Below, one piece after another: positions 734-31,052 of a DNA stretch of 64,000 nt. Source of the DNA: Neocallimastix sp. 'constans' (taxonomy: Eukaryota); the NCBI GenBank assembly GCA_050613775.1, contig JBODTK010000104.1, forward strand, positions 1 to 64,000. Direction: 5' to 3'. Positions within the stretch are counted from its first letter, which is position 1. Each line of letters begins with the position of its first letter. The notes under the pieces are model-generated. The model had not been told where the DNA came from. It ran no database searches and was given only the letters and a program-made list of their open reading frames with translations. The translations under genes were made by a program, and so were the position numbers.

Positions 734-786
<53 letters not shown>

Positions 787-1085: not shown

Positions 1086-1091
1086 TTTATA

Positions 1092-1936: not shown

Positions 1937-2106
1937 ACAATAAAGATTATTTTTTTGTATTTAATAATTATAATTAATTAATAATTTTATTAGCTATAAC
2001 AATACAATATTTATCGTTTAAAAAGAAAAATTTTTGAAAGGTGAAAATAATAAATAAAACTTTGCTTCTAAATTTATTACTACAAATATACTAAATTACA
2101 AAATTC

Positions 2107-2294: not shown

Positions 2295-2476
2295 ATACTT
2301 ACTAAAGAAAGCAAATAAAATTATTATTTTCAAAAATTACTAAGATATATTGTTTTAAAATTTGATTCGATATTAAATTACTTGTTAAATTATATTTTTA
2401 AAGTTGGACTTTCAAATTTATTCGTATTTAATAACCTCGTTAATTTACAATAAAAAAATTATTAACTAAAAACGAA

Positions 2477-3382: not shown

Positions 3383-3422
3383 ATGGGAGCAGAAGCACTC
3401 CCAATGACAAAACAATAGCTTC
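3370..3422 (+). promoter_or_regulatory. -1 ribosomal frameshift signal (UUUAAAC + H-type pseudoknot); copies at 11135, 24878, 31952
   Basis: In-frame T TTA AAC, a 7-nt spacer, stem TGGGAG/CTCCCA, and loop GAAGC pairing with downstream GCTTC. The -1 frame is open into pol. Confidence 0.85.
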
Positions 3423-6400
3423 ATTAAATAATTTACAAAATAATACTTTTACCAAGAATACCCCAATTGATAATAATTCCTTTAATAAAGAATCTGAAGA
3501 ATCTGATTTTAGTGACACAACTGAAAGTGAGGATGATATCATTATAAATGCTATAAAAAGAAAAATGAATGATAATAACAGCGAAAAGGAAGAAAATAAT
3601 TCCAAGAAAGTACATAAAAGTTTAAAAAGATAATCCACGTCCTTTCGCAACTCCTGCTTTAAGAAAGAAGAAAGAAAATGAGCTACATAATAAACCAAAT
3701 AAAGTTTATAAAAATCAAATACTTCCTTCAATTTTAACTCAACCAAATATTAACAAAGAAAAACAAAAAGAAAAGGAATTAAGAAAAATAAACAAGAGTA
3801 AGAGAAAGTAAAGAAGAAAACAACAATTATTCATCAAAAGGAAAGGAAAAAGTTGAATCTGAAGATATACTCGTAATCGATAATGAAATAGAAGATCTAG
3901 AAATGAATAAAGATAATCAACAAAATAAAACTAATACTTTGGAAAAATTAATTTCAACAAAAACTAAAGAAACTAATAATGGAAATACTCAGTTAGTAAA
4001 AAGGAATATTAAAATGATGAATAATAAAGAACCTTACAATATTATGGATGATTTAAAATAATCTTAAATCCAGTATTACGATAGGTCAACTCTTGAATGC
4101 ATGTCCGAAAATTCGTTCACAATTAACTCAAGGTTTAAAGTTAGAAAAGTCTAAAATAATTGGGACTGTAGACAATGTAATAGCACGAACTTTATTAGTA
4201 AATAACTATGATCATAGCTACATAAGTAAAAGTAATGAAGTAGCCGAAGAAGACTTAGCAATGGTTGATGCAAGTGTTGACGGAGTACTAGGAAAACTTT
4301 TAATTGATTCTTGTAGTAACCTAAGCATCGTTACTAAGCAGTATTTTGATAAATTACCTGGTGAATATGAAACAGTTGGAAAAAGTCGTGGAAGAATCCA
4401 ACTAGCAACACAAGATGAAGAATACTCGGAAGGAATTATTGTTCAATTACCAGTAAAAATTAATAATTATGAATTTAATGCGGACTTTAGAATTATTGAG
4501 AAAGAAGACTCATTTTATGATATGTTAATAAACTTTAAAACTCAAATCGATCATTGTTTATTTATTCATCCGACCTTAAACAGTTTATGTAAACTTTTGT
4601 CAGAAAGTGAATACGAAGAAATAGCTAAAATAAATAATCAATATTATGATGAAGAAAGTATAATTTGCACTATTAGAAAAGTTAAAGAAACGAATAATGA
4701 AAAGGAAATTATAAAGGAATTAACTCCAATGGAATTTATTGAGAGTGATGAATTTTTAAGTACCTTAAATAAAGATTATAAAGAACAAATTATTAAAATT
4801 CTCAAAGAAATGATTGACATAGTTGCCACTTCAACAGAAGAACTAACTCCTTCTAAACTTTCACCACATAAGATCCGTTTGAAAGCAAATGCAAAGCCAG
4901 TAAAATTAAGAAGTTATAGGTTAACTAAATTAAAATCAGATATCTTAAAAGAAGAACTTACAAAGCTTATTAAGAAAGGATTGATAGAACCATCCTGTTC
5001 AGAATGGTCATCTCCAGTAGTACTCATTCTAAAACACAATGGAAAGTGGCGCTTGTGTATTGACTACCGAAAAGTCAATGATATGACAGAAAAAGATTCT
5101 TATTCAGTTCCATATATAGATGAAATTTTTGATAGTCTCGGAGGATCTAAAATATTTACAACTCTTGATTTATTTTCTGGTTTTCACCAAATCTTAATGG
5201 ATGAAGAAAGCGTTGAAGTAACCACTTTCACTACTAAGTTTGGAAATTATCAATTTAAGGTTATGCCTTTTGGACTTACTGGAGCTCCCTCAACCTTCCA
5301 AAGAGAAATGAATAAAATTTTATTCCCTTTTATTGGTGAATTTGTTTATGTATTTATTGATGATGTTTTGATCTATTCAAAAAGTATCGAAGAACATTTA
5401 ATTCATATTAAACAAGTATTAGAAGTATTTAAAGAAAACAAGTTAAAAATTAATATTGAAAAGTGCCATTTTCTTCAAACTGAAGTTGATGTATTAGGTC
5501 ACAAACTTACTACTAAAGGATTAAGTCCCATGGAAAGTAAAATAACAGCTATTAAGAAGTGGGAAGCCCCTTCATCAATTCATGAATTAAGATCATTTCT
5601 AGGAGCAATAGGGTATTATCGTGACTTTATCCCTAAATATGCTCAAATTACCTCACCTTTATGTAAATTATTGAAAAAGAATACTAAATATGAATGGAAT
5701 AAAGAACAACAAGAAAGCTTTGAACTCCTAAAAGAAAAATTAATCAATGCACCTATTCTAAAATTTCCGTCATTTGACAAACCTTTTATCATTAGAACTG
5801 ATGCTTCGTATAATGGAATTGGTGGAGTTCTTTTACAAAAAGAAGAAGAAACCGGTAAGGAGCATCCAATACACTTTATAAGTAGAAGTTTGAAGAAAAC
5901 TGAAAAGAATTATGGTATCACAGATTTGGAAGGAACAGCTTTATTTTACTGTATGACTAAATTTAAATCTTATATTGAAGGAAATCCATTACCTACAACT
6001 ATTTACACAGATCATAAACCATTAGTTGGTTTATTTAAGAATAAAGAACCTTTGAATGCAAGGCAAACAAGATGGTGTCTAACCGCTAGTATGCTTGGAA
6101 TTAATATAAAATATGAATCAGGCAAAAAGAATGTGTTAGCTGATGCTCTTTCAAGAATGAAAAGTAAGGAAGAGAGAAAGATATTATTAACAAAAATTAC
6201 TAATGGAAATAATGAAGAATTATTATCTAAGGTTATAAAGGAATTTATTAATGAAAAGTTTACTGTTATTGATGGTGAAGATTACTTTATCGACAATGGA
6301 AATTATAGAAAATTAATAACGGACGAAAATGAAAGGTTTAAATTAATTTTAGAAGCTCATAATATTGGCCACGAAGGATATTACAAAACATATCAAAGAC

Positions 6401-7383
6401 TTAAGAAAAACTTTTATTGGAATCATATGATTAAAGATATCAAAAGAATTGTTAGTAATTGTGAAAAATGCCAATTAAATCGTCCTCAACCATATCCAGA
6501 ACCAACCGAAAACCATCCAACTAAAGTGGAGGGTCCCTTTGTGCATTTAGGATTAGATATTATAGGACCGTTACCAAAAACAAGAAATAATAATCAATAT
6601 ATTATAGTAACTGTTGATTACTTTACCAAATGGGTTGAAGCCGAACCCACTGAAAACATAACTTCCTCTGATATAATTAAATTTTTAATAAACGTTTTTG
6701 CAAGACATGGTGTACCTCAAGTTATTACTACTGATAATGGAGTCCAATTCACTTCTGATATGACTAAAATCTTTCTTGATCTTTATGATGTATATGTTAA
6801 ATTTGTAGCTACTTACCACCCTGAATCAAATGGCCTTACTGAAAATCGAAATAAAGAAATTGGAAAATTACTCCGTTTATTAGGAAGGAAAAATCAAGAT
6901 TGGGATGAAGTTTTACCTTCTGCTTTATGGGCACTTCGAACTACCAAAAATACAGCTACTGGACATTCTAGTTTTGAATTAGTATATGGAAGAGAAGACC
7001 AACAGCCTTATGATATAGCCATAAGAACAATTGAAAATGCAGGTAAATCATATGATGAAATCTTAATGGAAAAATTTGTTCGTCATTATCAATGGACTAG
7101 AGAAGCATGCGAAAATGTGAAGAATGCTAACAAGTATTGGGCAACAAGACGAGAAGAACAAATAAGTATGAAAAAAGGAAAAGAATTAAAGGCTGGTGAT
7201 CTTGTTCTTGTTAGAAACTTTAGCCGCACTAAGCTAGAACCATATTACAATGGACCATTTAAAATTTTAAAAATTCAATTCAACACGGCAACCCTAATCG
7301 ATCAGAAGACTGGAAAGCAACTCGATAGGAATGTTCACTTTAAAAATTTAGTAAAGTTTAACTCCGCTTACAGAGAAGCTTGA
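3370..7383 (+). CDS. pol: Pol, family A copy 1 (three +1 A-run insertions near 3629, 3790, 4058 relative to A2/A3)
   Basis: PR (IDSCS), RT (FIDD, MPFGL), RNase H (TDAS, TDHKPL), integrase (HHCC, DD35E, GPF). The continuous ORF covers only 4093-7383. Confidence 0.88.
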
Positions 7384-7897
7384 GTCTTCGTCGGGGCATC
7401 TTGATAAGAATGTACTAAATAATGCATTCTTAATTAAATCTACGATTTATTTCTAATACATTATGTGTACATTATTATTTTTGTACTTTAATAAATTTTT
7501 AAATCCAAAGATCAAAAATTAAATCAAAAATTATATTAAACTTTATATTTTTATATTAAATCTTATATTAATAGTAATATTTTTATATATTTAAAACTTA
7601 TATTAGCAATATTAATAATAAATCTTATTTTTTTTATATTAATAATGAAAATTTATATTAATAATATTTTTATATATTGATAATTAAAAATTTATATATT
7701 ATATTTTAACTTTTTATTATAAAATTTTATATCGAAATGTTTTATTTTATATTGAAAAATATTTTATTTTATTAAAAACCTTTATATTAGAATAGTATTT
7801 TTATTTTTATTTGAATATTTTAACAGATTGTAATAAAAATTATAGCCAATTAAATAAATTCTTATTAGTAATATTTTAGATATTTTTAAATAAATAA

Positions 7898-7950
<53 letters not shown>

Positions 7951-10241
7951 TTTTATTAATATTATAAATGTATTTTATTTATATTGTTATAATTAAATTT
8001 TATTGATAAGAATGTACTAAATAATGCATTCTTAATTAAATCTACGATTTATTTCTAATACATTATGTGTACATTATTATTTTTGTACTTTAATAAATTT
8101 TTAAATCCAAAGATCAAAAATTAAATCAAAAATTATATTAAACTTTATATTTTTATATTAAATCTTATATTAATAGTAATATTTTTATATATTTAAAACT
8201 TATATTAGCAATATTAATAATAAATCTTATTTTTTTTTATATTAATAATGAAAATTTATATTAATAATATTTTTATATATTGATAATTAAAAATTTATAT
8301 ATTATATTTTAACTTTTTATTATAAAATTTTATATCGAAATGCTTTATTTTATATTGAAAAATATTTTATTTTATTAAAAACCTTTATATTAGAATAGTA
8401 TTTTTATTTTTATTTGAATATTTTAACAGATTGTAATAAAAATTATAGCCAATTAAATAAATTCTTATTAGTAATATTTTAGATATTTTTAAATAAATAA
8501 ATAAAAAAAAAAAAAAAAAAAAAAAATAAAAAAAAAAAAAAAAAAAAAAATGTTTTATTAATATTATAAATGTATTTTATTTATATTGTTATAATTAAAT
8601 TTTATATAATTAATTATAAAAATCAATTTAAATTTAATAGTTTTTATAAAAAAAAAATAAATAAAATGTAATTTAGTGGCAAGAACAACTTTTATGCCTT
8701 GAAAAAAGTATAAATAGTTGTAAATTTTGCTACTAATTTTTAAATATCATCAAATAAAATCAAATAAATTTATAAATAAAAATAATAAATAAATAAATAA
8801 AATTTGTGTTTCCTTACTTTATTTTTATTTAATTCTCTAAAACCTTAACATTTATATGGTGGAGATATCGGGGAATTAAATAGAAATAATAGTAAATAAC
8901 ATAGATTTTTTTTTAATTTTTTTTTTATTTTATATTGATAAACAAGTAAGTCGTTAATCCTTTGATTAACCCATGGCGCTTGTTTGATATATATATATAA
9001 AAAAAATTTTTTTTAAATAAGTAAAATTAAGATTCTAAAAAAACAAATTTTGTAAAATTATAACAAGGAGCGGATAGAGCTCATACACAGTGTATTCTCA
9101 GATAGCAACAAATTAACTCTATTCATAGTAGGTTATTGAATAGTAGTTAATTTGGAGATTAATTGGAAAGTAGACGAAGGTATTTGGTTACCGACCCGGT
9201 AATAATAGTTCAACCTTCAACGTTTCAACACACGAAGGTGCGGGTACTTTCCAAGCACTGGCGAATAAGGAGCTTACGTCACCGAAGGCGTAAGATTGTT
9301 TTTTTTATATAATTTTTTTTACTTTTCTTTGTGCTAGTTATAAGGCACTTTATTATATAAAGTATCAGACTTTGGCTAACTTCGCCATTTAAATTTTTTT
9401 TATTTTTTTTTATTACTGGTACTTTATTTGTTATATAATTCCTGTAATAGAATCTTAATTTACTTTGAAAATATTGTGTTTTTAGTTAATTTTTATTAGT
9501 TAATAAAAATATTATTGAATACTTTTAAAATTTTTTTATTCCGTACATAGATTATCGGATTAAGTTTATCCTACATAGTAATTGGGCTAGTGGGCTCTGA
9601 ACTGCTATATTTTATATTGAATATAGTAATCGTGGCACACGCGTGGCATGACACCATTAGGTAAGCTGCACGTCAGACAGTGTGTACTATCAGATTGTAC
9701 GACAATAAAGATTATTTTTTTGTATTTAATAATTATAATTAATTAATAATTTTATTAGCTATAACAATACAATATTTATCGTTTAAAAAGAAAAATTTTT
9801 GAAAGGTGAAAATAATAAATAAAACTTTGCTTCTAAATTTATTACTACAAATATACTAAATTACAAAATTCAAGTGGTCGATAAAGATTTCGAGCTTGAA
9901 AAATATTCTATTAAGTTGTCGATAAAGATTTCGAACTTAAAATTATTCTATTAAGTTGTCGATAAAGATTTCGAACTTAAAATTATTCTTAAAAAAGTAG
10001 TCGAAAAGAACCTCGTGCTTTATAATTTCTACTAAGTTGTCGATAAGGATTTCGAGCTTATACTTACTAAAGAAAGCAAATAAAATTATTATTTTCAAAA
10101 ATTACTAAGATATATTGTTTTAAAATTTGATTCGATATTAAATTACTTGTTAAATTATATTTTTAAAGTTGGACTTTCAAATTTATTCGTATTTAATAAC
10201 CTCGTTAATTTACAATAAAAAAATTATTAACTAAAAACGAA

Positions 10242-11147
10242 ATGTCTACTAAAAGTACTTTAAGTTTTAAAGAATTAAAGAAAGAATTACGAGACATAGT
10301 GAAGCTTAGCAAGGACAATTTAGATATAAAGTCCTGGGCTACTGAATTAAAACTTTGGATCAAGATACAAGGTATCACAGATCCGGAAACAATATTTAAT
10401 GCTTGTTTACTTACCAGCTCTGGTGAAGTACAACGCGTTATTGAAGATTTGGGAGAAGATAGTGATGATGAAAGTGATGATTCATCAGATGAAGAAGAAG
10501 ATGATGAAGAAGAAAATGTTGATGATGATAAATTTCCTTCTCTTGAAAAAATTATTTCAAGTCTTGAAAATTTTTACGGTATTAAAGAAGACCAAAATTT
10601 ACTTCTTAAAGAACTTCGTGCAATGCGAATTAAAAGAAACGAAAAGATTAAAGACTTTAATGTAAGATATAGAACTTTGTACACTAAACTTGATAAAAAG
10701 AGAGGAAAGCGCATTGGTGTACTAGATTATATTGACTCTATTCAAAATAATTATGAAGCCTGGAAGAAATTATCCCTTAAAGATGATATAAGTATGGAGA
10801 AAGCTTTCAAAATTGCCGAGAAAGTAGATAGACTTTCTGTAAGGAACAATAATATTAATACCTATAATGTTAATAATTCCCAGCATAATCAAAATAATCA
10901 AAACAGTACTACTTCAAGACTTTATCCTAAAAGAAGAAACGAAACTTTCCAAACAAGTCAAACAAATAATAAACTGAAACCTCAAGATATTATAGAAGAA
11001 TCAACCCAGAAAATGAGAAATTTATCTGTTAAAACTTGCTTCTTCTGTAAGGAAGAAGGTCATTACTCATACTATTGCCCTCAATTAAATAAGATTATGG
11101 AAAAAAATAAAAAAGAAATATATTCCAAAAAGTCTTTAAACTTCTAA
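10242..11147 (+). CDS. gag: Gag, family A copy 2
   Basis: 301 aa, differs from A1 gag by one residue; CCHC knuckle. Confidence 0.93.
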   Translation: MSTKSTLSFKELKKELRDIVKLSKDNLDIKSWATELKLWIKIQGITDPETIFNACLLTSSGEVQRVIEDLGEDSDDESDDSSDEEEDDEEENVDDDKFPSLEKIISSLENFYGIKEDQNLLLKELRAMRIKRNEKIKDFNVRYRTLYTKLDKKRGKRIGVLDYIDSIQNNYEAWKKLSLKDDISMEKAFKIAEKVDRLSVRNNNINTYNVNNSQHNQNNQNSTTSRLYPKRRNETFQTSQTNNKLKPQDIIEESTQKMRNLSVKTCFFCKEEGHYSYYCPQLNKIMEKNKKEIYSKKSLNF

Positions 11148-14100
11148 ATGGGAGCAGAAGCACTCCCAATGACAAAACAATAGCTTCATTAAATAATTTA
11201 CAAAATAATACTTTTACCAAGAATACCCCAATTGATAATAATTCCTTTAATAAAGAATCTGAAGAATCTGATTTTAGTGACACAACTGAAAGTGAGGATA
11301 ATATCATTATAAATGCTATAAAAAGAAAAATGAATGATAATAACAGCGAAAAGGAAGAAAATAATTCCAAGAAAGTACATAAAAGTTTAAAAGATAATCC
11401 ACGTCCTTTCGCAACTCCTGCTTTAAGAAAGAAGAAAGAAAATGAGCTACATAATAAACCAAATAAAGTTTATAAAAATCAAATACTTCCTTCAATTTTA
11501 ACTCAACCAAATATTAACAAAGAAAAACAAAAAGAAAAGGAATTAAGAAATATAACAAGAGTAAGAGAAAGTAAAGAAGAAAACAACAATTATTCATCAA
11601 AAGGAAAGAAAAAAGTTGAATCTGAAGATATACTTGTAATCGATAATGAAATAGAAGATATAGAAATGAATAAAGATAATCAACAAAATAAAACTAATAC
11701 TTTGGAAAAATTAATTTCAACAAAAACTAAAGAAACTAATAATGAAAATACTCAGTTAGTAAAAAGGAATATCAAAATGATGAATAATAAAGAACCTTAC
11801 AATATTATGGATGATTTAAATAATCTTAAATCCAGTATTACGATAGGTCAACTCTTGAATGCATGTCCGAAAATTCGTTCACAATTAACTCAAGGTTTAA
11901 AGTTAGAAAAATCTAAAATAATTGGAACTGTAGACAATGTAATAGCACGAACTTTATTAGTGAATAACTATGATCATAGCTACATAAGTAAAAGTAATGA
12001 AGTAGCCGAAGAAGACTTAGCAATGGTTGATGCAAGTGTTGACGGAGTACTAGGAAAACTTTTAATTGATTCTTGTAGTAACCTAAGCATCGTTACTAAG
12101 CAGTATTTTGATAAATTACCTGGTGAATATGAAACAGTTGGAAAAAGTCGTGGAAGAATCCAACTAGCAACACAAGATGAAGAATACTCGGAAGGAATTA
12201 TTGTTCAATTACCAGTAAAAATTAATAATTATGAATTTAATGCGGACTTTAGAATTATTGAGAAAGAAGACTCATTTTATGATATGTTAATAAACTTTAA
12301 AACTCAAATCGATCATTGTTTATTTATTCATCCGACCTTAAACAGTTTATGTAAACTTTTGTCAGAAAGTGAATACGAAGAAATAGCTAAAATAAATAAT
12401 CAATATTATGATGAAGAAAGTATAATTTGCACTATTAGAAAAGTTAAAGAAACGAATAATGAAAAGGAAATTATAAAGGAATTAACTCCAATGGAATTTA
12501 TTGAGAGTGATGAATTTTTAAGTACCTTAAATAAAGATTATAAAGAACAAATTATTAAAATTCTCAAAGAAATGATTGACATAGTTGCCACTTCAACAGA
12601 AGAACTAACTCCTTCTAAACTTTCACCACATAAGATCCGTTTGAAAGCAAATGCAAAGCCAGTAAAATTAAGAAGTTATAGGTTAACTAAATTAAAATCA
12701 GATATCTTAAAAGAAGAACTTACAAAGCTTATTAAGAAAGGATTGATAGAACCATCCTGTTCAGAATGGTCATCTCCAGTAGTACTCATTCTAAAACACA
12801 ATGGAAAGTGGCGCTTGTGTATTGACTACCGAAAAGTCAATGATATGACAGAAAAAGATTCTTATTCAGTTCCATATATAGATGAAATTTTTGATAGTCT
12901 CGGAGGATCTAAAATATTTACAACTCTTGATTTATTTTCTGGTTTTCACCAAATCTTAATGGATGAAGAAAGCGTTGAAGTAACCACTTTCACTACTAAG
13001 TTTGGAAATTATCAATTTAAGGTTATGCCTTTTGGACTTACTGGAGCTCCCTCAACCTTCCAAAGAGAAATGAATAAAATTTTATTCCCTTTTATTGGTG
13101 AATTTGTTTATGTATTTATTGATGATGTTTTGATCTATTCAAAAAGTATCGAAGAACATTTAATTCATATTAAACAAGTATTAGAAGTATTTAAAGAAAA
13201 CAAGTTAAAAATTAATATTGAAAAGTGCCATTTTCTTCAAACTGAAGTTGATGTATTAGGTCACAAACTTACTACTAAAGGATTAAGTCCCATGGAAAGT
13301 AAAATAACAGCTATTAAGAAGTGGGAAGCCCCTTCATCAATTCATGAATTAAGATCATTTCTAGGAGCAATAGGGTATTATCGTGACTTTATCCCTAAAT
13401 ATGCTCAAATTACCTCACCTTTATGTAAATTATTGAAAAAGAATACTAAATATGAATGGAATAAAGAACAACAAGAAAGCTTTGAACTCCTAAAAGAAAA
13501 ATTAATCAATGCACCTATTCTAAAATTTCCGTCATTTGACAAACCTTTTATCATTAGAACTGATGCTTCGTATAATGGAATTGGTGGAGTTCTTTTACAA
13601 AAAGAAGAAGAAACCGGTAAGGAGCATCCAATACACTTTATAAGTAGAAGTTTGAAGAAAACTGAAAAGAATTATGGTATCACAGATTTGGAAGGAACAG
13701 CTTTATTTTACTGTATGACTAAATTTAAATCTTATATTGAAGGAAATCCATTACCTACAACTATTTACACAGATCATAAACCATTAGTTGGTTTATTTAA
13801 GAATAAAGAACCTTTGAATGCAAGGCAAACAAGATGGTGTCTAACCGCTAGTATGCTTGGAATTAATATAAAATATGAATCAGGCAAAAAGAATGTGTTA
13901 GCTGATGCTCTTTCAAGAATGAAAAGTAAGGAAGAGAGAAAGATATTATTAACAAAAATTACTAATGGAAATAATGAAGAATTATTATCTAAGGTTATAA
14001 AGGAATTTATTAATGAAAAGTTTACTGTTATTGATGGTGAAGATTACTTTATCGACAATGGAAATTATAGAAAATTAATAACGGACGAAAATGAAAGGTT

Positions 14101-15145
14101 TAAATTAATTTTAGAAGCTCATAATATTGGCCACGAAGGATATTACAAAACATATCAAAGACTTAAGAAAAACTTTTATTGGAATCATATGATTAAAGAT
14201 ATCAAAAGAATTGTTAGTAATTGTGAAAAATGCCAATTAAATCGTCCTCAACCATATCCAGAACCAACCGAAAACCATCCAACTAAAGTGGAGGGTCCCT
14301 TTGTGCATTTAGGATTAGATATTATAGGACCTTTGCCAAAAACAAGAAATAACAATCAATATATTATCGTTACAGTTGATTATTTCACCAAATGGGTTGA
14401 AGCTGAACCCACTGAGAATATAACTTCCTATGATGTAATTAAATTTTTAATAAACGTTTTTGCAAGACATGGTGTGCCTCAAGTTATTACTACTGATAAT
14501 GGAGTCCAATTCACCTCCGACATGACAAAAATCTTTCTTGACCTTTATGATGTTTATGTAAAATTCATAGCTACCTATTACCCTGAATCCAATGGTCTCA
14601 CTGAAAACCGAAATAAAGAAATTGGAAAATTGCTTCGTTTATTAGGAAGGAAAAATCAAGATTGGGATGAAGTTTTACCTTCTGCTTTATGGGCACTTCG
14701 AACTACCAAAAATACAGCTACTGGACATTCTAGTTTTGAATTAGTATATGGAAGAGAAGACCAACAGCCTTATGATATAGCCATAAGAACAATTGAAAAT
14801 GCAGGTAAATCATATGATGAAATTTTAATGGAAAAATTTGTTCGTCATTATCAATGGACTAGAGAAGCATGCGAAAATGTGAAGAATGCTAACAAGTATT
14901 GGGCAACAAGACGAGAAGAACAAATAAGTATGAAAAAAGGAAAAGAATTAAAGGCTGGTGATCTTGTTCTTGTTAGAAACTTTAGCCGCACTAAGCTAGA
15001 ACCATATTACAATGGACCATTTAAAATTTTAAAAATTCAATTCAACACGGCAACCCTAATCGATCAGAAGACTGGAAAGCAACTCGATAGGAATGTTCAC
15101 TTTAAAAATTTAGTAAAGTTTAACTCCGCTTACAGAGAAGCTTGA
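11135..15145 (+). CDS. pol: Pol, family A copy 2 (entered by -1 frameshift; first ATG 11330)
   Basis: Uninterrupted PR-RT-RH-IN reading frame. Confidence 0.95.
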   Translation, partial: FKLLNGSRSTPNDKTIASLNNLQNNTFTKNTPIDNNSFNKESEESDFSDTTESEDNIIINAIKRKMNDNNSEKEENNSKKVHKSLKDNPRPFATPALRKKKENELHNKPNKVYKNQILPSILTQPNINKEKQKEKELRNITRVRESKEENNNYSSKGKKKVESEDILVIDNEIEDIEMNKDNQQNKTNTLEKLISTKTKETNNENTQLVKRNIKMMNNKEPYNIMDDLNNLKSSITIGQLLNACPKIRSQLTQGLKLEKSKIIGTVDNVIARTLLVNNYDHSYISKSNEVAEEDLAMVDASVDGVLGKLLIDSCSNLSIVTKQYFDKLPGEYETVGKSRGRIQLATQDEEYSEGIIVQLPVKINNYEFNADFRIIEKEDSFYDMLINFKTQIDHCLFIHPTLNSLCKLLSESEYEEIAKINNQYYDEESIICTIRKVKETNNEKEIIKELTPMEFIESDEFLSTLNKDYKEQIIKILKEMIDIVATSTEELTPSKLSPHKIRLKANAKPVKLRSYRLTKLKSDILKEELTKLIKKGLIEPSCSEWSSPVVLILKHNGKWRLCIDYRKVNDMTEKDSYSVPYIDEIFDSLGGSKIFTTLDLFSGFHQILMDEESVEVTTFTTKFGNYQFKVMPFGLTGAPSTFQREMNKILFPFIGEFVYVFIDDVLIYSKSIEEHLIHIKQVLEVFKENKLKINIEKCHFLQTEVDVLGHKLTTKGLSPMESKITAIKKWEAPSSIHELRSFLGAIGYYRDFIPKYAQITSPLCKLLKKNTKYEWNKEQQESFELLKEKLINAPILKFPSFDKPFIIRTDASYNGIGGVLLQKEEETGKEHPIHFISRSLKKTEKNYGITDLEGTALFYCMTKFKSYIEGNPLPTTIYTDHKPLVGLFKNKEPLNARQTRWCLTASMLGINIKYESGKKNVLADALSRMKSKEERKILLTKITNGNNEELLSKVIKEFINEKFTVIDGEDYFIDNGNYRKLITDENERFKLILEAHNIGHEGYYKTYQRLKKNFYWNHMIKDIKRIVSNCEKCQLNRPQPYPEPTENHPTKVEGPFVHLGLDIIGPLPKTRNNNQYIIVTVDYFTKWVEAEPTENITSYDVIKFLINVFARHGVPQVITTDNGVQFTSDMTKIFLDLYDVYVKFIATYYPESNGLTENRNKEIGKLLRLLGRKNQDWDEVLPSALWALRTTKNTATGHSSFELVYGREDQQPYDIAIRTIENAGKSYDEILMEKFVRHYQWTREACENVKNANKYWATRREEQISMKKGKELKAGDLVLVRNFSRTKLEPYYNGPFKILKIQFNTATLIDQKTGKQLDRNVHFKNLVKFNSAYREA

Positions 15146-16972
15146 GTCTTCGTCGGGGCATCTTGATAAGAATGTACTAAATAATGCATTCTTAATTAAA
15201 TCTACGATTTATTTCTAATACATTATGTGTACATTATTATTTTTGTACTTTAATAAATTTTTAAATCCAAAGATCAAAAATTAAATCAAAAATTATATTA
15301 AACTTTATATTTTTATATTAAATCTTATATTAATAGTAATATTTTTATATATTTAAAACTTATATTAGCAATATTAATAATAAATCTTATTTTTTTTTAT
15401 ATTAATAATGAAAATTTATATTAATAATATTTTTATATATTGATAATTAAAAATTTATATATTATATTTTAACTTTTTATTATAAAATTTTATATCGAAA
15501 TGCTTTATTTTATATTGAAAAATATTTTATTTTATTAAAAACCTTTATATTAGAATAGTATTTTTATTTTTATTTGAATATTTTAACAGATTGTAATAAA
15601 AATTATAGCCAATTAAATAAATTCTTATTAGTAATATTTTAGATATTTTTAAATAAATAAATAAATAAAAAAAAAAAAAAAAAAAAAAATGTTTTATTAA
15701 TATTATAAATGTATTTTATTTATATTGTTATAATTAAATTTTATATAATTAATTATAAAAATCAATTTAAATTTAATAGTTTTTATAAAAAAAAAATAAA
15801 TAAAATGTAATTTAGTGGCAAGAACAACTTTTATGCCTTGAAAAAAGTATAAATAGTTGTAAATTTTGCTACTAATTTTTAAATATCATCAAATAAAATC
15901 AAATAAATTTATAAATAAAAATAATAAATAAATAAATAAAATTTGTGTTTCCTTACTTTATTTTTATTTAATTCTCTAAAACCTTAACACATGATAATAC
16001 AGAATGAACAAATAATACTAATTGTGCTAGAATAATATAAATTATTCTAACCTTATAGATTATTCTATTCTATATAATTGGAACTTTCCAATATTCTTCA
16101 AATATTACTAAATAGAAAATCTTAAGTTAATAAATCACTAATTAACTTATAATTCCTTTTTGAATTATCGATCCGATTCCATTATAATGTATTAAAAATC
16201 TTTAGCCAAGAATATTGTCCTTGCCCACTTAATATATTAATATTATATTTCTTTTGTATTATGTTATATTGAAAATAATCAAATCTATTTAATTAGTTAT
16301 TAAAATTTTCGTTATCAATTTAAATTTATTTTTAATTACTAAATTTAACTAAACCACAATAAAATATTCTGTATAATCTCTTTATTTTTATTTTATATAT
16401 ATTAGTATTAAACTATTATTAAATAATTAATAATTCAATAATATATAACTACTATTTATAACAATAATATTATTAACTAAAATAATAATTCAATTTCAAT
16501 TTAAATGTTTTATTTATAAAAATAATTAGTAATTAGTTTATTAAAAAAATAGTTAGGCTTTACAAATTTTAATTTGATAAAAAAATATAAATACATGTAA
16601 TTTTAGTGAAATAAAATATAATCAAAAAAACTTTCTTTTTATTAAATAAATAATTATATTATTATTTTTTTTTTATAAATTTAAATAAATAAATATTGAT
16701 TTTAAAACAAATTATTTTTTTTTATTGTAATTTTATTATTTGTGTTAATTATTATTATATTCCTAAAATTATATGAACCATACCATGAAAAATTGGTGGA
16801 GATATCGGGGAATATAATAATAAATTAATACATTGGGGATAAAATTATAATATTAATAAATAATTTTTCTAATAAAACAAATATTTTTTTTTAAAAAAAG
16901 AAAACAATTTTTATATTTTTAACTAATTATTATTAATTGTTAAAAATATTAATTAATGTAACGAATCTTAAA

Positions 16973-17587
16973 TGATACGATATTTTATTAAATACCGTAT
17001 ATGTTAGTTGGGCGTTTGTGCAAAAGGGAATTACTCCAAGAATATTATATTACAATAATTATATTTACTTTTTATTTATTTATCTTTTATTATTTTATTT
17101 ATTATATTTTATCATAAAAAAAATACATGTTTTATTATTATTCCTTAAAAAAAAAGAAAATATTTATTTATAAATTATTTTCATAATTATATTTTTTACT
17201 AATTTTATAAATTTTATTTATCGAAACACTAAAATTAATTAATAAATATAAATATCCATAACTTTTTACTTATAACTATTAATTCATCTTGTTTAACATT
17301 ATTTAAAAATTATTTTAATATTAACATCAATTTAATTAAACATTCAATCTCCGTTATAATTAATATAACTAATTTTACTATATTATCAACAATTCTTTTA
17401 ATATTTTTAATATTATTATTTAATTTAATATTTTAATAATTAATAATAATAAATTATCTTTAATAATATATTAATAATATATTTTAAGATTCATTATATA
17501 AAATTAATTTTTAATAAATATTTATATTAATAATTTTTCTAAATAATTTTTCTATTATTTTCTATTATTTTTACTGGACATGCATCA
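16973..17587. mobile_element. Solo LTR inserted in the 5' LTR of B
   Basis: 615 bp absent from the 3' LTR of B; ends TGATAC...GCATCA; 4-bp TSD TAAA. Confidence 0.85.
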
Positions 17588-17610
17588 TAAAAAATTAGAA
17601 ATTAGAATGC

Positions 17611-17663
17611 TGGCATAGTGGTTAGTCACTATGACCTCAGCCTGAACCACTAGGGTTCGACTC
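17611..17663 (+). promoter_or_regulatory. tRNA-type Pol III internal promoter inside the B LTR (second copy 23052-23104)
   Basis: A-box TGGCATAGTGG and B-box GGTTCGACTC at tRNA-like spacing, with a T4 run shortly downstream; no cloverleaf. Confidence 0.75.
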
Positions 17664-18182
17664 ACACCTTTACTAAAATTTTATATCATTTAAATTTTAA
17701 AGAATTTTTATACTTCATTTCTGTATTTGTTTCTGTATTTGTTTCTGTATAAATTTCTGAAAAAATTAACAAAAGACATTCTTAGAAATTAATAGAAACA
17801 AATCAGATAGAAATTCTATTTTAATTTATCTTTTATCATTATTTCTTTTAGATTCTTTTTAACCGAAAATAATCAATTTTTATGAAACTTTTTAATGATT
17901 TTATGGTTTTAAATTTTTATGGATTTAAATTTTGAAAAACTATAAATAGGAGTGAATTTCGCAGCCAAAAAAAAAAAATATTTTAAAAATTGTGTTTTTA
18001 TTAATTATTGAATTAATTAATAAGTAATTCGAAATATTACAATAATTAATCTTTATAATTAATATTTTTAAATTTCTTAATTAATAAAACTATATTTTAA
18101 AAAACCAAATTACTTATTAATCAAAAAGTGCTTACCTATTGTGTTACACTCTTTAAAACACGGATATTCCAATATTCGTTAC

Positions 18183-18193
18183 AATAAAAACAC
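18183..18193 (+). promoter_or_regulatory. Self-priming PBS of B
   Basis: AATAAAAACAC is complementary to GTGTTTTTATT at 17992-18002, about 50 nt downstream of TATAAATA (17941). There is no TGG tRNA-type PBS. Confidence 0.75.
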
Positions 18194-18230
18194 CACTAAA
18201 CTAAGCACAATACCTTTGCACTTTTACTCT

Positions 18231-18470
18231 TTTTGGAACCCCATTAAGGAATCCCATTTTCTACTACTATTTTTGGAACCCCGTTAAGGAATCCCATTTT
18301 CTACTACTATTTTCGGAACCCCGTTAAGGAATCCCATTTACTACTATTCTTTTTTGGAACCCCGTTAAGGAATCCCATTCTCTACTACTCTTTTTGGAAC
18401 CCCGTTAAGCAATCCCATTCTCTATTACTCTTTTTGGAACCCCGTTAAGGAATCCCATTTTCTACTATTT
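18231..18470 (+). repeat. Six ~40-bp tandem repeats in the B leader
   Basis: Unit TTTTGGAACCCCGTTAAGGAATCCCATTTTCTACTACT. Confidence 0.9.
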
Positions 18471-18702
18471 TTGAAACCACTTACCATTACTATAAATTTT
18501 TCTACCAAAATTCATTCATGAATTTATAAATTCAATCGGAACCCTTGAATTTTACTATATATTAAAATTATTAATATTTTCAATAATCCATATAACCATC
18601 CTTGAAATTAAAATTATTTATATTGAAATTAAATATTTACTTCTTCTAATAATTAATTATATTGTATATTTATTATTCAATCAAAATCAATAATTATAAT
18701 AA

Positions 18703-18746
<44 letters not shown>

Positions 18747-18803
18747 ATAATAATAATTTAGATATTTAATAGTTTTAATATAAATAACCAATTGAATAAT
18801 TAG

Positions 18804-22705
<3,902 letters not shown>

Positions 22706-23972
22706 ATATAAATCATTTAATCAAAAATAAATTTTATTTCATCAAAGTACTATTAATCATTCTAACTTATGATTATTTTAAAAAAAAAAAAAAATTATTT
22801 TATATTATTCAAAAACATTTATTCTAGATAGTTTTATTTTTATACTTTATTTTTAAAACTTAAAATTCATGTAATTTTTATTATCCAATGTATTAATTAA
22901 ATTATCACTCCTATAAGTAATTTAGTTATAGTTTATTATTATAAAAGTTAGAATTAGAAATAGTTTAGATTTAAAGCAAAAGATTCGTCTGGCATCCGAA
23001 TCCTAGAGGAGGACCATGTAACGAATCTTAAAAAATTAGAAATTAGAATGCTGGCATAGTGGTTAGTCACTATGACCTCAGCCTGAACCACTAGGGTTCG
23101 ACTCACACCTTTACTAAAATTTTATATCATTTAAATTTTAAAGAATTTTTATACTTCATTTCTGTATTTGTTTCTGTATTTGTTTCTGTATAAATTTCTG
23201 AAAAAATTAACAAAAGACATTCTTAGAAATTAATAGAAACAAATCAGATAGAAATTCTATTTTAATTTATCTTTTATCATTATTTCTTTTAGATTCTTTT
23301 TAACCGAAAATAATCAATTTTTATGAAACTTTTTAATGATTTTATGGTTTTAAATTTTTATGGATTTAAATTTTGAAAAACTATAAATAGGAGTGAATTT
23401 CGCAGCCAAAAAAAAAAAAATATTTTAAAAATTGTGTTTTTATTAATTATTGAATTAATTAATAAGTAATTCGAAATATTACAATAATTAATCTTTATAA
23501 TTAATATTTTTAAATTTCTTAATTAATAAAACTATATTTTAAAAAACCAAATTACTTATTAATCAAAAAGTGCTTACCTATTGTGTTACACTCTTTAAAA
23601 CACGGATATTCCAATATTCGTTACAATTAATATTAAATTAAACTAATATTCGTGCATAGATTTCCGGGTTAAGTTTATCCTACATAGTAATTGGGCTAGT
23701 AGGCTCTGGACTGCTATTTTTTATATTGAAAATAGTAACCGTGGCACACGCGTGGCATGACACCTTTCAAGAGGTAAGCTGCACGTCAGACAGTGTGTAC
23801 TATCAGATTGCACGATTATTATAATTTAATAAGTGATTAACAATAATAAATAATTAATAATTTTATTAGTTAAAAGATTTATTTTTTTTAATTTTTTTTA
23901 TTTTTACTTTTTTTTATAACAATTTATACATTACGAGGTTTAGCATTCTATAGATACAATAAATTTTATTTT

Positions 23973-24890
23973 ATGAGAACATCCAGTACTTCCAGTACTC
24001 CAACAGAGAGTACTCCAGAAAGTAAGCTTAGCTTCAGAGAATTAAAGAAAGAATTAAAAGATTTTGAAAAGCTTACTAAACAAAACCTTGACATCAACTC
24101 CTGGGCAAATGAGTTAAAGGCATGGATAAAATACCAACATATCAAGGATCCTGAAACTATTTTTACTGCTTGTATATTAACGGCTTCTGGAGAACCAAGA
24201 GAAATTATCCAAGAACTAGAAGATGGAAATGACCTTACTGAAGATGAAGATTCTGATTTCGATAGCGATAGTGAAGGAGAAGATGATGAAGAAAGTGAAT
24301 CTACTACCACCTACCCAAGCCTTGATGAAATCATAAATCATCTGAAGACTTTCTATGGACTTAAAGAAGATCAAACCAACTTGTTACGAGAATTGCGTTC
24401 CATGAAAATAAAGAAGAACGAGAAAGTTAAAGATTTTAATGTCCGTTATAGATCTTTGTACCATAAATTGGATAAAAAGAGAAGAAGAAAAATTAGTGTT
24501 TTAGATTATGCAGATTCCTTAACCAATAATCCTGACGCATGGAGAAAGGTTATGCTTAAAGACAATATTTCTATTACCAAAGCATTCGCTATAGCTGAAA
24601 AAGTTGATCGTTTATCTATTAAAAATAGTACTGAATATTATGATAAGACTCGTTACAATCTCCTTAACTCTAAAAGTAATTTTAATAAGAACATTTCAAA
24701 TGATTTTAACAAACCAAAAACCCACAAAAATGTATCTATAGAAAATCTCACTAACAAGATGAAAGAAATGAAAATTAGTACTTGCTGGTTTTGTAGCAAT
24801 GAAGGACATACCAAACGAAACTGTCCTAAATTAAATTCTATATTGGAAAATAACCGCAAGAAGTTTTATGAAAATTATTTAAACCACTAA
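23973..24890 (+). CDS. gag: Gag of element C
   Basis: 305 aa, aligns with A gag (LSFRELKKEL, DPETIF); CCHC CWFCSNEGHTKRNC. Confidence 0.92.
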   Translation: MRTSSTSSTPTESTPESKLSFRELKKELKDFEKLTKQNLDINSWANELKAWIKYQHIKDPETIFTACILTASGEPREIIQELEDGNDLTEDEDSDFDSDSEGEDDEESESTTTYPSLDEIINHLKTFYGLKEDQTNLLRELRSMKIKKNEKVKDFNVRYRSLYHKLDKKRRRKISVLDYADSLTNNPDAWRKVMLKDNISITKAFAIAEKVDRLSIKNSTEYYDKTRYNLLNSKSNFNKNISNDFNKPKTHKNVSIENLTNKMKEMKISTCWFCSNEGHTKRNCPKLNSILENNRKKFYENYLNH

Positions 24891-27800
24891 AAGGGAGTAG
24901 AAGCACTCCCATCGTCAAAAAAATTGCTTCAGTCTGCCATCGTCCCAAAACAGTTGACTTAAAAGAAGATGATGATTATGAAGAAATTGCTGATTTCCAA
25001 GAAGGTACTACTACGGATTATTACGAAGATTTTGATGATGAGTCGGATGGTTCCAAAGAATTGGATTACTTAGTAAACGTTATAAAGAGAAAGGCAAATC
25101 CTAAAGATGAAGAGACTAGTGACCAAAGAGGAAAGAGGGTTCACCGTAGTCTAAGAGATGATCCTAAGCCAATAGTTACTCCAGGTTTACGAAAACAAAA
25201 AGAAAATCAATTAAGGGGAACATCGCGACCAGTCAAAAAGCCAACAACTCATTTACATCCTTCGATTATAGCTCAACCCAGAATAGAGAAAGAAAAGAGG
25301 ATTGAGAAAGAGCTAAGAGATAAGGAAAGAGCTAGTACTAGTACTTCTGTGGAAAATAATAAAAATAGTATTGTTAATATTATTAATGAAGAAACTTCTC
25401 AGGAAGGAAATAATTCTAAACAAACTTTAAATAAATTAATTCAAGAAAAATCATCAGAAAAGTCAACTGAAATTATGCCAACTAGAATTCCAAAAAGAAT
25501 ACAAATGCAAACTGATTGTGATAGTCATGACGTGATCAAAGATTTAAACTCCAGTAATTGCAATATTACATTTGGACAATTATTGGACGTTGCTCCAAAG
25601 ATACGGTCTCAAGTATCACAAGGACTTAAATTAGAAAAGAATAATACTAAAATTTCAGGTGCAGTGGATAATATGTGTGCTACTACAATAATAACGAACA
25701 ATATAGATCATACATATAAAAGTAAACATCATGAACCACAAGAAGATGATATTGCTATGGTTGATGTAATAGTAGATGGAGTTCGTGGTAAGGCTTTAAT
25801 AGATTCATGTAGCAACTTAAGTATTATCACAAAGCAATTTTTAGATAAATTACCTTATCAGTATGAACCTATAGGAGTTAGTGCAGGACGAATACGTTTA
25901 GCAACGATGAATGATGATTACTCAGAAGATGTGTTAATCAAAGTTCCCGTAAATATTAATGAACTAGAACTACTTGTTACGTGTAGAATTATAGACAAGG
26001 AGGATCCATTCTATGATATATTAATCAACCTCAAAACTCAAATTGATAACCAGTTATTTATACATCCAATTAGATATAGTCTTTGTCGATTTAATGATCA
26101 AGGTTTAATTGAAGAAATTGCACCTATTAATAATGAATATGATGACGAAGAAAAATTATTATGTGTAATCAAAGCATTGAATCACCAAGAAGCTAAGCAA
26201 CAATTGAAAACGATTGAAGGATTACCACCCATAAAATATATATATGACACAGTTTTTCAAAGTACAATTAATTCAAATTATAGAGAAGCTATTACTAAAT
26301 TACTTGAAGAATATATTGATATAATTGCAACTTCTTCTGAAGAATTAACACCTTCAGATTTATCACCACACAAAATTATTCTTAAGGAAGGAGTTAAACC
26401 TATTAAACAAAAATTTTATCGACTTAGTAAATTAAAAACAGATATCTTAAAAGAAGAATTAACCAAACTCATATATAAACGATTAATTGAACCTTCATGT
26501 TCAGAATGGTCATCACCAGTAGTACTTGTGCCTAAAAAGAACGGTAAATGGCGCCTGTGTATTGACTATAGGAAAGTAAATGAAGCAACTAAGAAGGATT
26601 CTTATTCTTTACCAAATATTGAGGAAATTTTTGATAGCTTAGATGGAGCGAAAATCTTCTCAACATTAGATCTTTATTCCGGTTATCATCAAATATTAAT
26701 GGATGATGATAGTGTTGAAATCACTACCTTTACAACTAAGTTCGGAAACTACCAATTCAAGGTAATGCCCTTCGGTTTAACAGGTGCTCCAGCTACATTC
26801 CAAAGAGAAATGAACCGTATACTATTTCCCTTAATAGGAAAATGCGTCTATAACTTTATCGATGATATTTTAATCTACTCAAGAACTGAAGAAGAACACC
26901 TAGAACATCTTAAACAAGTCTTAGAAATATTCAAGGAACATAAGTTAAAAATCAATATCGAAAAGTGTTCTTTCATGCAAACTGAAGTAGAAGTACTTGG
27001 ACATAAAGTATCCTCAGAAGGTTTAAGTCCATTGGAAAACAAAGTTGAAGCTATTAAAGAATGGAAGGCTCCCTCTAACATTCATGAACTTCGATCATTT
27101 TTAGGAGCCATTGGATATTATAGAAATTTTATTAAGGACTTTGCAAAAGTTACTGCTCCTCTCTGCACTCTATTAAGAAAAGGTATTAAGTTTGAATGGA
27201 AAAAGGAACAAGAAGAAAGCTTTAAAATTCTTAAGGAAAGATTAATCAATGCTCCAATATTAAGATTTCCTAGATTCGATAGAGAATTTATTATAAGAAC
27301 AGATGCTTCCTATGATGGTATAGGCGGTGTGCTTTTACAAAAGGATGATGAAACTGGAAAGGAACATCCGGTTCATTATATTAGTAAAAGTTTATCTAAA
27401 TCGGAAAAGAATTATGGAATTACGGATCTAGAAGGTGCTGCTCTAATTTACTGTATTAATAAATTAAAATCTTATATTATGGGAAATCCTAAGCAAACTA
27501 TAGTATATACAGATCATAGACCATTAATCGGATTACTTAAAAGTAAGGAACCACAAAATTCTCGTCATACTAGATGGTGTTTGACTATCAGTATGTTAGG
27601 AATTGATTTACGATATGAAACTGGAAAGAATAATGTTGTCGCAGATGCTCTATCAAGAATGAAAAATGAAAAAGAAAAAGTTGTCTTAACAACACAAATT
27701 ATCAAGAAACAAGATGAAAACCTGCTTTCAAGAACCATTAAGGAATTTATTGAAGAAAAATTTACGACAATTGATGGTGTGGACTACTTTGTTGATGGCA

Positions 27801-28624
27801 ATAATTATAGAAAATTAGTTACAGATACAAAAGAAAAACTTCAATTAATTTTTCAAGCACACAGTATAGGACACGAAGGCTATTACAAGACATACCAACG
27901 TTTGAAAAAGAGCTACTATTGGAACAATATGGTTAATGACATTAAGCGAATTATAGGTAAATGTGAAAAATGTCAATTAAATAAATCTCAACCATACCCT
28001 GAACCAACGGAAGATAAACCAACTGAAGTGGAAGGACCATTTACACACTTAGGATTGGACATTATAGGACCTCTAAGTAAAACCAGAAATAATAATCAAT
28101 ATATAATCGTTGTGGTTGATTATTTTACTAAATGGGTTGAGGCAGAGCCCACTGAAAATGTTACTTCTCAGGATGTGATAAAATTTTTAATTAATGTATT
28201 TGCTCGACACGGTGTACCTCAAATTATCACTACTGATAATGGAACACAATTTACATCAGATATGACAAAAATCTTCCTTGATTTATATGATGTATATGTT
28301 AAATTTATCACTCCATATCATCCTGAAAGCAATGGTTTAGTTGAGAATCGTAATAAAGAAATTGGAAAATTATTACGATTACTAGGACAACAACACAAAG
28401 AATGGGATGAAATTTTACCATCTGCACTTTGGGCTTTAAGAACTACTAAAAACTCAATCACCAACCATTCAAGTTTTGAATTAGTTTATGGAAGGGAGGA
28501 CCAACAACCTTTTGACATTGCTGCCAGACCAACTAAGGGTATAAATAAGTCTTCTGACGAAATTCTACTGGAAAAATTTGTATCACACTACCAATGGGTA
28601 ATATTTATATATAAATCTATATAA
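24878..28624 (+). pseudogene. pol: Pol of element C, integrase C-terminus lost
   Basis: PR IDSCS, RT FIDD, RH and IN core are present. The frame runs into unrelated AT-rich sequence after about 28598. Confidence 0.88.
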
Positions 28625-28721
28625 TATAATAAAAAAAATTATATATATATATATATAAATCTATATAAAATAATAAAAAAAAAAAAAAAATTTTTTATTT
28701 ATCTATAAAAAAACTACCGAA

Positions 28722-28794
28722 TACCCAAACCCGGGTTCGAACCGGAGACCTTTTGCGTGTAAAGCAAACGTGATAACCACTACACTATTTGGAT
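28722..28794 (-). tRNA. tRNA-Val (anticodon UAC)
   Basis: ATCCAAA-TAGTGTAGTGGTTATCAC-G-TTTGC-TTTACAC-GCAAA-AGGTC-TCCGG-TTCGAAC-CCGGG-TTTGGGT-A: a full 73-nt cloverleaf followed by a T-run terminator. Confidence 0.95.
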
Positions 28795-29297
28795 ATTTCT
28801 TGCCATGAATTGATAAGAATGTACTAAATAATGCATTCTTAATTAAATCTACGATTTATTTCTAATACATTATGTGTACATTATTATTTTTGTACTTTAA
28901 TAAATTTTTAAATTCAAAGATTAAAAATTAGATCAAAAATTATATTAAACTTTATAATTTTTATATTAAATCTTATATTAATAGTAATATTTTTATATAT
29001 TTAAAACTTATATTAACAATATTAATAATAAATCTTATTTTTTTATTTTTATATTAATAATGAAAATTTGTATTAATAATATTTTTATATATTGATAATT
29101 AAAAATTTATATATTATATTTTAACTTTTATTATAAAATTTTATATCGAAATGTTTTATTTTATATTGAAAAATATTTTATTTTATTAAAAACCTTTATA
29201 TTAGAATAGTATTTTTATTTTTATTTGAATATTTTAACAGATTGTAATAAAAATTTTAGCCAATTAAATAAATTCTTATTAGTAATATTTTAGATAG

Positions 29298-29338
<41 letters not shown>

Positions 29339-31052
29339 TATTAATATTATAAATGTATTTTATTTATATTGTTATAATTAAATTTTATATAATTGATTAT
29401 AAAAATCAATTTAAATTTAATAGTTTTTATATATAAAAAGAAAAATAATAATAAAATGTAATTTAGTGGCAAGAACAACTTTTATGCCTTGAAAAAAAAA
29501 GTATAAATAGTTGTAAATTTTGCTACTAATTTTTAAATATCATCAAATAAAATAAAATAAAATAAAATAAAATAAAATAAATTTATAAATAAAAATAATA
29601 AATAAAAAAAATAAAATTTGTGTTTCTTACTTTATTTTTATTTAATTCTCTAAAACCTTAACATTTATATGGTGGAGATATCGGGGAATTAAATAGAAAT
29701 AATAGTAAATAACATAGATTTTTTTTAATTTTTTTTTATTTTATATTGATAAACAAGTAAGTCGTTAATCCTTTGATTAACCTATGGCGCTTGTTTGATA
29801 TATATATAAAAAAATTTTTTTTAAATAAGTAAAATTAAGATTCAAAAAAAAAAAAAAAAATTTTGTAAAATTATAACAAGGAGCGGATAGAGCTCATACA
29901 CAGTGTATTCTCAGATAGCAACAAATTAACTCTATTCATAGTAGGTTATTGAATAGTAGTTAATTTGGAGATTAATTGGAAAGTAGACGAAGGTATTTGG
30001 TTACCGACCCGGTAATAATAGTTCAGCCTTCAACGTTTCAACACACGAAGGTGCGGGTACTTTCCAAGCACTGGCGAATAAGGAGCTTACGTCACCGAAG
30101 GCGTAAGATTGTTTTTTTTATATATATTTTTTTTTTACTTTTCTTTGTGCTAGTTATAAGGCACTTTATTATATAAAGTATCAGACTTTGGCTAACTTCG
30201 CCATTTAAATTTTTTTTATTTTTTTTTATTACTGATACTTTATTTGTTTAATAATTCCTGTAAAAGAATCTTAATTTACTTGAAAATATTGTGTTTTTAG
30301 TTAATTTTTATTAGTTAATAAAAATATTATTGAATACTTTTAAAATTTTTTTTTATTCCGTACATAGATTATCGGATTAAGTTTATCCTACATAGTAATT
30401 GGGCTAGTAGGCTCTGAACTGCTATATTTTATATTGAATATAGTAATCGTGGCACACGCGTGGCATGACACCATTAGGTAAGCTGCACGTCAGACAGTGT
30501 GTACTATCAGATTGTACGACAATAAAGATTATTTTTTTGTATTTAATAATTATAATTAATTAATAATTTTATTAGCTATAACAATACAATATTTATCGTT
30601 TAAAAAGAAAAATTTTTGAAAGGTGAAAATAATAAATAAAACTTTGCTTCTAAATTTATTACTACAAATATACTAAATTACAAAATTCAAGTGGTCGATA
30701 AAGGTTTCGAGCTTGAAAAATATTCTATTGAGTTGTCGATAAAGATTTCGAACTTAAAATTATTCTATTGAGTTGTCGATAAAGATTTCGAACTTAAAAA
30801 TTATTCTTAATAAAGTAGTCGAAAAGAACCTCGTGCTTTATAATTTCTACTAAGTTGTCGATAAGGATTTCGAGCTTATATCTACTAAAGAAAGCAAATA
30901 AAATTATTATTTTCAAAAGTTACTAAAATATATTGTTTTAAAAATTGATTCGATATTAAATTACCTATTAAATTATATTTTTAAAGTTGTATTTCCAAAT
31001 TTATTCTTATTTAATCACCTCATTAATATACAACAAGAAATATTTAAACAAA

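Follow-up and report, generated by a model that had tools for sequence, protein, structure and literature searches.

An A-box/B-box cassette in the LTRs of a Neocallimastix chromovirus is a recurrent insertion site for other retrotransposons at a tRNA-like offset

Element B, an autonomous chromovirus of Neocallimastix sp. 'constans', carries in its LTRs an A-box and a B-box spaced as in a type 2 Pol III promoter, and in elements of this type four junctions with foreign LTRs lie 22-24 nt upstream of the A-box, against 24 nt for the two insertions found at a real tRNA gene. The window, by which we mean the whole stretch of 64,000 nucleotides analysed (positions 1 to 64,000 of contig JBODTK010000104.1, forward strand), has a G+C content of 23% and consists in its bulk of nested Ty3/gypsy elements. 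A sequence-only reading of the same DNA had described one of these insertions and proposed that B-type elements spread target sites for a tRNA-targeting lineage. This proposal survives in part: the four junctions fall within a few nucleotides of each other, and one family, which we call A, is present both at a cassette and at the tRNA gene, but one of the inserts comes from outside the A lineage. The parts of B that matter here are the following.

16957 to 23625, plus strand: element B, autonomous Ty3/gypsy chromovirus, delimited by Pfam domains, target site duplication (TSD) and ends
16957 to 18183, plus strand: 5' LTR of B, interrupted after its base 16 by a solo LTR; the rejoined halves match the 3' LTR
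16973 to 17587: solo LTR of 615 bp with TG...CA ends and a 4-bp TSD, TAAA, on both sides
17611 to 17664, plus strand: occupied copy of the cassette, A-box at 17611-17621 and B-box at 17654-17664
17941 to 18193, plus strand: TATA box at 17941, Pol II start predicted around 17992 and, by complementarity, self-priming primer binding site (PBS)
23017 to 23625, plus strand: 3' LTR of B, 609 bp, with the insertion site empty and the cassette at 23052-23105

Element B lies in the 5' UTR of an A-like element, C, between copies of a 5-bp TSD (ATTAA). Its single gag-pol frame (18809-22705, 1298 aa) is intact and matches Ty3_capsid, RVP_2, RVT_1, RNaseH, rve, SH3_Tf2-1 and Chromo (E 8.7e-18) in Pfam, which gives the order gag-PR-RT-RNaseH-IN followed by a C-terminal chromodomain that defines chromoviruses; the three aromatic residues of the chromodomain (Y, W, Y) are present, as are a polypurine tract (PPT) and 609-bp LTRs with TG...CA ends. 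The PBS, just behind the LTR, is complementary over 11 nt to positions 17992-18002 (LTR +418), about 50 nt past the TATA box, and the relative L001 retains the pairing through a compensatory change, from which we conclude that B is self-priming. Both B and L001 thus have the Tf1-type arrangement, a PBS complementary to the predicted RNA 5' end within the LTR. The nearest named homologues are gene models of Orpsp1, at 69% identity for B and 51-62% for the A family. Runs containing element B are mainly feces or gut metagenomes of herbivores, with RNA runs among them (in contig form). Both observations point to an anaerobic gut fungus as the probable host.

The cassette consists of an A-box (TGGCATAGTGG, position 17611) and a B-box (GGTTCGACTC, position 17654) spaced by 43 nt, and it is repeated in the 3' LTR at 23052 and 23095, so that the A-box stands at LTR +36 and the B-box 43 nt further on in both copies. 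The base after the B-box is A and not the consensus C. No cloverleaf accompanies the boxes, as had been claimed: ARAGORN over the whole window and Rfam over 16000-30000 (E<=5) call no tRNA at the cassette, and ARAGORN calls none in any of the 13 loci examined. Chance does not readily produce such pairs, as the window holds four (three cassettes and the tRNA gene), compared with a mean of 0.01 and a maximum of 1 in 200 Markov-resampled windows. Type 2 Pol III promoters are made of an A-box and a B-box (GTTCRAnYC) 30-60 bp apart (PMC3159450, PMC5391098), and the box consensus and spacing are found in all four subfamilies of B-like LTRs, with start-to-start distances of 42-44 nt. Between subfamilies the cassette (56-58 nt) is 74-88% identical (shuffles, 57-58%), whereas the following 150 nt reach 63-74% (shuffles, 63-66%). 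In the A-box, whose columns read T, G, G, Y, variable, Y, A, variable, T, G, G, variation is confined to the positions that the consensus leaves free. Columns 1-8 lay outside our search pattern; the final A-box bases and the B-box of L001 and L003 were preset by it and say nothing about conservation. We therefore retain the earlier claim of a functional Pol III promoter in a more cautious form: a putative promoter-type unit, suggested by conservation of the type 2 kind and by use at a tRNA-like offset. As to its origin, a tRNA-derived SINE inserted in U3 is possible.

The insertion in the 5' LTR of B was read correctly in all its particulars. The solo LTR ends 24 nt short of the A-box. Nothing is inserted at this site in the 3' LTR, from which the rejoined 5' LTR is separated by a single indel in 609 bp, and the solo insertion is hence younger than the insertion of B itself. 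The equality of this offset with that at the tRNA gene (28811 versus 28787, that is 24) was also borne out. At this reference target the window contains three features.

28722 to 28794, minus strand: tRNA-Val(TAC), called by ARAGORN and by Rfam RF00005 (61.5 bits), with the A-box T at 28787
28811 to 36831, plus strand: element A3, 24 nt upstream of the tRNA-Val A-box, TSD GAAT
36836 to 37437: older solo LTR (F), behind A3, at the same cut upstream of tRNA-Val

A3 stands 16 nt from the 5' end of the mature tRNA. A third GAAT closes solo F behind A3, which indicates that one cut at tRNA-Val was used twice, and both LTRs have an offset of 24 from the A-box. The only tRNA gene of the window, the single case on which targeting by the A family is judged here, thus bears two insertions within about 20 bp upstream. 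A further TGATA start at 37441-37492 overlaps the last TSD upstream of this gene and could be what is left of a third insertion, older than these two. The TSD is 4 bp in A3, in F and in the solo LTR of B, and not the 5 bp of Ty3 proper. The left 25 nt of the solo LTR in B agree with those of F at 19 of 25 positions (p about 1e-3) while identity over the whole length is at the level of shuffles, so a kinship between the two is no more than suggested by their ends.

The most direct support for the pairing of B-type elements with a tRNA-targeting family is a second cassette, B', which the sequence-only reading of this pairing does not mention.

164 to 215, minus strand: cassette B' in a diverged B-like LTR, A-box T at 215 and B-box at 173
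238 to 8003, plus strand: element A1, Ty3/gypsy without chromodomain, with a tRNA-type PBS, 23 nt upstream of the B' A-box

The B' LTR occupies the first 237 bases and runs off the start of the window; its cassette is 74% identical to that of B. A1 belongs to the same family as A3 (96% DNA identity), so that one family is found at a cassette and at a tRNA gene. A right TSD is missing in A1, since the 3' LTR of this element breaks off at 602 bp and is joined to A2. The other two junctions lie outside the window, one in a metagenome contig and the other among the read contigs of sequencing runs. L003, a further B subfamily, bears at offset 24 a foreign 672-bp LTR; we considered it as A-like and rejected this, the LTR being self-priming and outside the A lineage. 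Aligning the contigs of four runs to the 107-nt site gave six loose ends, namely three flanks at the LTR start, two from one copy (in X9 and X12) whose match with the reference ends 3 nt short of the A-box, and one junction in X9, at offset 22, with an A-like TGATA terminus (a 40-nt contig containing 11 letters of insert). The depth is 111 at this junction and 2636 over the LTR; no other junction lies at the site in the four runs, and the solo-LTR junction of the window's own B is in none of them. In X4 and X9 the first base of the main LTR contig coincides with the insertion site, but variants in the length of an A-run explain this, and these contigs were left uncounted.

Four junctions are therefore known, at offsets 24 (solo LTR in B), 23 (A1), 24 (L003) and 22 (X9). 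Under a naive uniform model, the chance that three further junctions fall in the 3-nt window is 1.3e-7 over a 600-nt LTR, and 6e-4 if the model is confined to the 35 nt that precede the A-box. The survey of loose ends in B-like LTRs from which other places would emerge covers 24 of 397 rows, so that some may be hidden. Most copies of the cassette look empty: the assembled empty ones are the 3' LTR of B, L001 and L002, and empty sites also account for most of the read depth. Occupancy looks low, and read-contig depth suggests that B LTRs are abundant, although depth is not copy number.

Our scan of metagenome contigs for the cassette pattern returned three loci: L001, a relative of B (pol 74% identical) with an empty cassette; L002, which is B itself, empty, and breaks at about +119; and L003. 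The same scan returned none in viral contigs and none in prokaryote genomes, and single-protein locus searches of viral contigs returned no relatives of B or A. Of the 107 loci found by an alignment search for the B clade (prokaryote assemblies, 46; viral contigs, 61), 24 were scanned for A- and B-boxes, and in these 24 no cassette lies in an LTR. Four AT-rich relatives (L005, L006, L008 and L015; pol 45-50%) have no A-box at +36 in the 44-76 nt available of their LTR start, and the nearest of the AT-rich relatives (L004, pol 70%) stops before its LTR. These comparisons hint, weakly, that the cassette may be restricted to the B clade. In L001, positions 1-1900 hold an LTR preceded by a PPT and followed by a PBS, the pattern of a tandem pair sharing an LTR or of a collapsed assembly.

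The cassette would most likely act by binding TFIIIC and loading TFIIIB, thereby drawing Ty3-like integrases. By analogy with Ty3, TFIIIC on the two boxes would position TFIIIB, and the incoming integrase would dock on TFIIIB and cut near the Pol III start site. This start would be expected some 18-20 nt ahead of the A-box, and the proximal ends of the TSDs described above fall there. If the A family works like Ty3, as we infer, the junctions report TFIIIB on the cassette. Ty3 itself needs both boxes and inserts 1-4 nt from the transcription start site in both orientations; it docks on TFIIIB, hits the tRNA relic ZOD1 and ignores sites bound by TFIIIC alone (PMC5911963), and its TSDs lie <=20 bp from the tRNA 5' end (PMC6673722). 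The self-priming insert of L003 could be a targeter of Pol III genes like Tj1 of S. japonicus, a self-priming element able to do so (PMC4600332).

What B would gain from such a promoter is a separate question. For self-priming to work, the genomic RNA of B has to begin at LTR +418, which makes the cassette an unlikely source of this RNA. The chromodomain would send B into heterochromatin, and TFIIIC and TFIIIB, bound some 330 nt ahead of the TATA box, would then shield its Pol II promoter, which may be its purpose. We favour a role as a barrier because TFIIIC sites show boundary activity (PMC3159450); given a working promoter, we put this role at somewhat short of an even chance. As a whole, it seems to us fairly probable that the cassette loads TFIIIC/TFIIIB, that insertions 22-24 nt upstream are a by-product, and that B keeps the promoter, most likely as a barrier. 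A wider scenario, in which a clade of autonomous gut-fungal chromoviruses built a TFIIIC/TFIIIB platform into its LTR for insulation in heterochromatin and so scattered mobile Pol III start sites over the genome, where at least two unrelated lineages, one tRNA-primed and the other self-priming, land with precision, tRNA-targeting elements being steered in this way into retrotransposon nests, strikes us as rather unlikely in its entirety.

Other explanations have to be weighed against a promoter kept as a barrier. The cassette could be a Pol III gene for a short element RNA of roughly 85-100 nt, with targeting again as a by-product, as in the microRNA cassettes of foamy virus U3. Its location in U3, the simian foamy virus precedent (PMC3993851) and the conservation of bases beyond the two boxes agree with this, as do the two hairpins that appear in single folds (z -1.7 to -3.3) and the run of four or more Ts found 15-33 nt past the B-box start in all four subfamilies. 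However, such runs are commonplace, with 17 T4 runs in the 609-nt LTR, and in a consensus fold of only four sequences none of the 14 pairs has changed on both sides while six are broken in one sequence. We consider a short-RNA gene improbable, though it is the main alternative. It could also be that the AT-rich termini of LTRs simply attract insertions and that the match with the tRNA offset is coincidental. Element D did insert at the first bases of the LTR of E, which has no cassette, A2 adjoins the start of the C LTR, the L003 insert belongs to another lineage, and distance to the A-box is confounded with distance to the LTR start, fixed as it is at 35 nt in both B and L001. Yet the A family sits at a real tRNA gene with the same offset, the four junctions are within only 3 nt, D went into the terminus itself rather than to +12 to +16, and the conservation of the boxes would be left unexplained; we give this explanation little credence.

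The sequence-only reading had also spoken of a tRNA mimic and of hyperparasitism or a decoy sink. In a selected form of this idea, the landing pad would be maintained because B-type elements soak up tRNA-targeting ones, to the advantage of either the host or B. The repeated use of the site is compatible with it, as are the probable abundance of B LTRs (read from depth, with the caveat given above) and the fact that insertion spares the cassette, the TATA box and R. A selected role of this kind is nonetheless not upheld by our results: the cassettes look mostly empty, and being hit brings B no evident gain, nor do we see a route by which it would favour B. An insertion in the 3' LTR would probably spoil that copy, and one in the 5' LTR would not pass to the progeny of B, because U3 is copied from the 3' LTR. 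A decoy thus deserves even less credence than a plain effect of LTR ends, and a putative promoter kept as a barrier remains our preferred reading.

The separate parts of this arrangement each have a precedent (Helenus and Cassandra, foamy virus U3, Dictyostelium rDNA), and it is their joining that appears to be new. The claim of novelty made earlier stands for the pairing, which we did not find in print, and not for its ingredients. Pol III promoters borne by LTRs are known in the non-autonomous Cassandra, Helenus and Ajax (PMC10886601, PMC10946416, PMC12859917). Like B, these TRIMp3-type elements have their A- and B-boxes inside the LTR, but they are non-autonomous and of 311-1263 bp (under about 1.3 kb), whereas B is a 6-kb autonomous chromovirus; their promoter is proposed, and for Cassandra shown, to transcribe the element, while B has a TATA box and a self-priming start of its own (PMC10886601). 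The Helenus paper (Kojima, 2024) states that 'not a few' Repbase LTRs hold tRNA-like sequence and expects Pol II for autonomous elements, and the text consulted reports no targeting of the cassettes (PMC10886601); its supplements may list autonomous LTRs with tRNA-like pieces. Foamy viruses also have A/B-box Pol III units in the LTR U3 of an autonomous retroelement, but theirs yield abundant processed small RNAs from defined stem-loops (PMC3993851); in our four sequences no covarying pairs are seen.

On the side of the incoming elements, Ty3 of S. cerevisiae, DGLT-A of Dictyostelium and Tj1 are Ty3/gypsy elements that insert <= about 20 bp upstream of tRNA genes, as A3 does (PMC5911963, PMC6673722, PMC5006619, PMC4600332); the distance is about 15 nt in DGLT-A and 16 nt in A3. 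The best PDB match of the A family is Ty3, but only at the general level of the reverse transcriptase, and Tj1 shares with Ty3 the 5-bp TSD. Unlike the targets described for these three, some of the targets here are inside another retrotransposon. A further parallel is found in Dictyostelium, where tRNA-less A/B loci of the rDNA are real integration targets (PMC5391098) and receive TRE5-A at a tRNA-like distance as in our case; these loci, however, belong to a host rDNA palindrome and are not carried by a mobile LTR, and TRE5-A, which inserts about 47 bp upstream, is of the non-LTR type (PMC5391098, PMC3159450). Full-text searches over mostly openly available papers turned up no autonomous chromovirus in which a cassette of this kind serves as a target, and no paper on tRNA-targeting elements in gut fungi.

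If our reading is correct, the sites open to tRNA-targeting elements would not be fixed by the tRNA genes of the host but multiplied by another element, a natural case of one transposon directing the integration of another that would help to explain dense retrotransposon nests. The range of LTR-borne Pol III promoters would then reach beyond very small non-autonomous elements to an autonomous chromovirus whose genomic RNA is unlikely to come from that promoter, and the idea that elements seeking heterochromatin carry their own insulator would become testable. For the engineering of gut fungi, the cassette would offer a multicopy candidate Pol III promoter together with an integration site.

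Several features of the window are worth recording in their own right. A1, A2 and C stand in one row upstream of the B' cassette (238-15989; 15992-28600), with the A1 3' LTR ending at 602 bp precisely at the start of A2 and a gap of 2 bases between A2 and C; this may be three elements stacked on one target, or two sites joined by deletion or misassembly. D (minus) and E (plus) form a head-to-head pair of Ty3/gypsy elements without chromodomain (37493-51556), in which the first bases of the E LTR fall inside the 5-bp TSD of D; E has a self-priming PBS and no matching TSD. A and C have in common a tRNA-type PBS (1086-1110, 16787-16812, 29664-29690) separated from the LTR end by an unusually long gap of 6-8 nt; this PBS may correspond to the 3' end of tRNA-Ala. 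AT-rich Ty3/gypsy contigs within MAGs of rumen prokaryotes (L004-L008, L011, L015, L019, L025) are very likely fungal contamination. The sole host protein gene identified in the window is represented by one exon.

56785 to 57084, minus strand: exon of a ubiquitin-conjugating enzyme gene (PF00179, E 4e-42)

Finally, a 230-nt block of the 5' UTR (1772-1999, 23647-23875) is 85% identical between A and C, whose pol DNA is only 72% identical, and is on this comparison a candidate packaging or translation signal.
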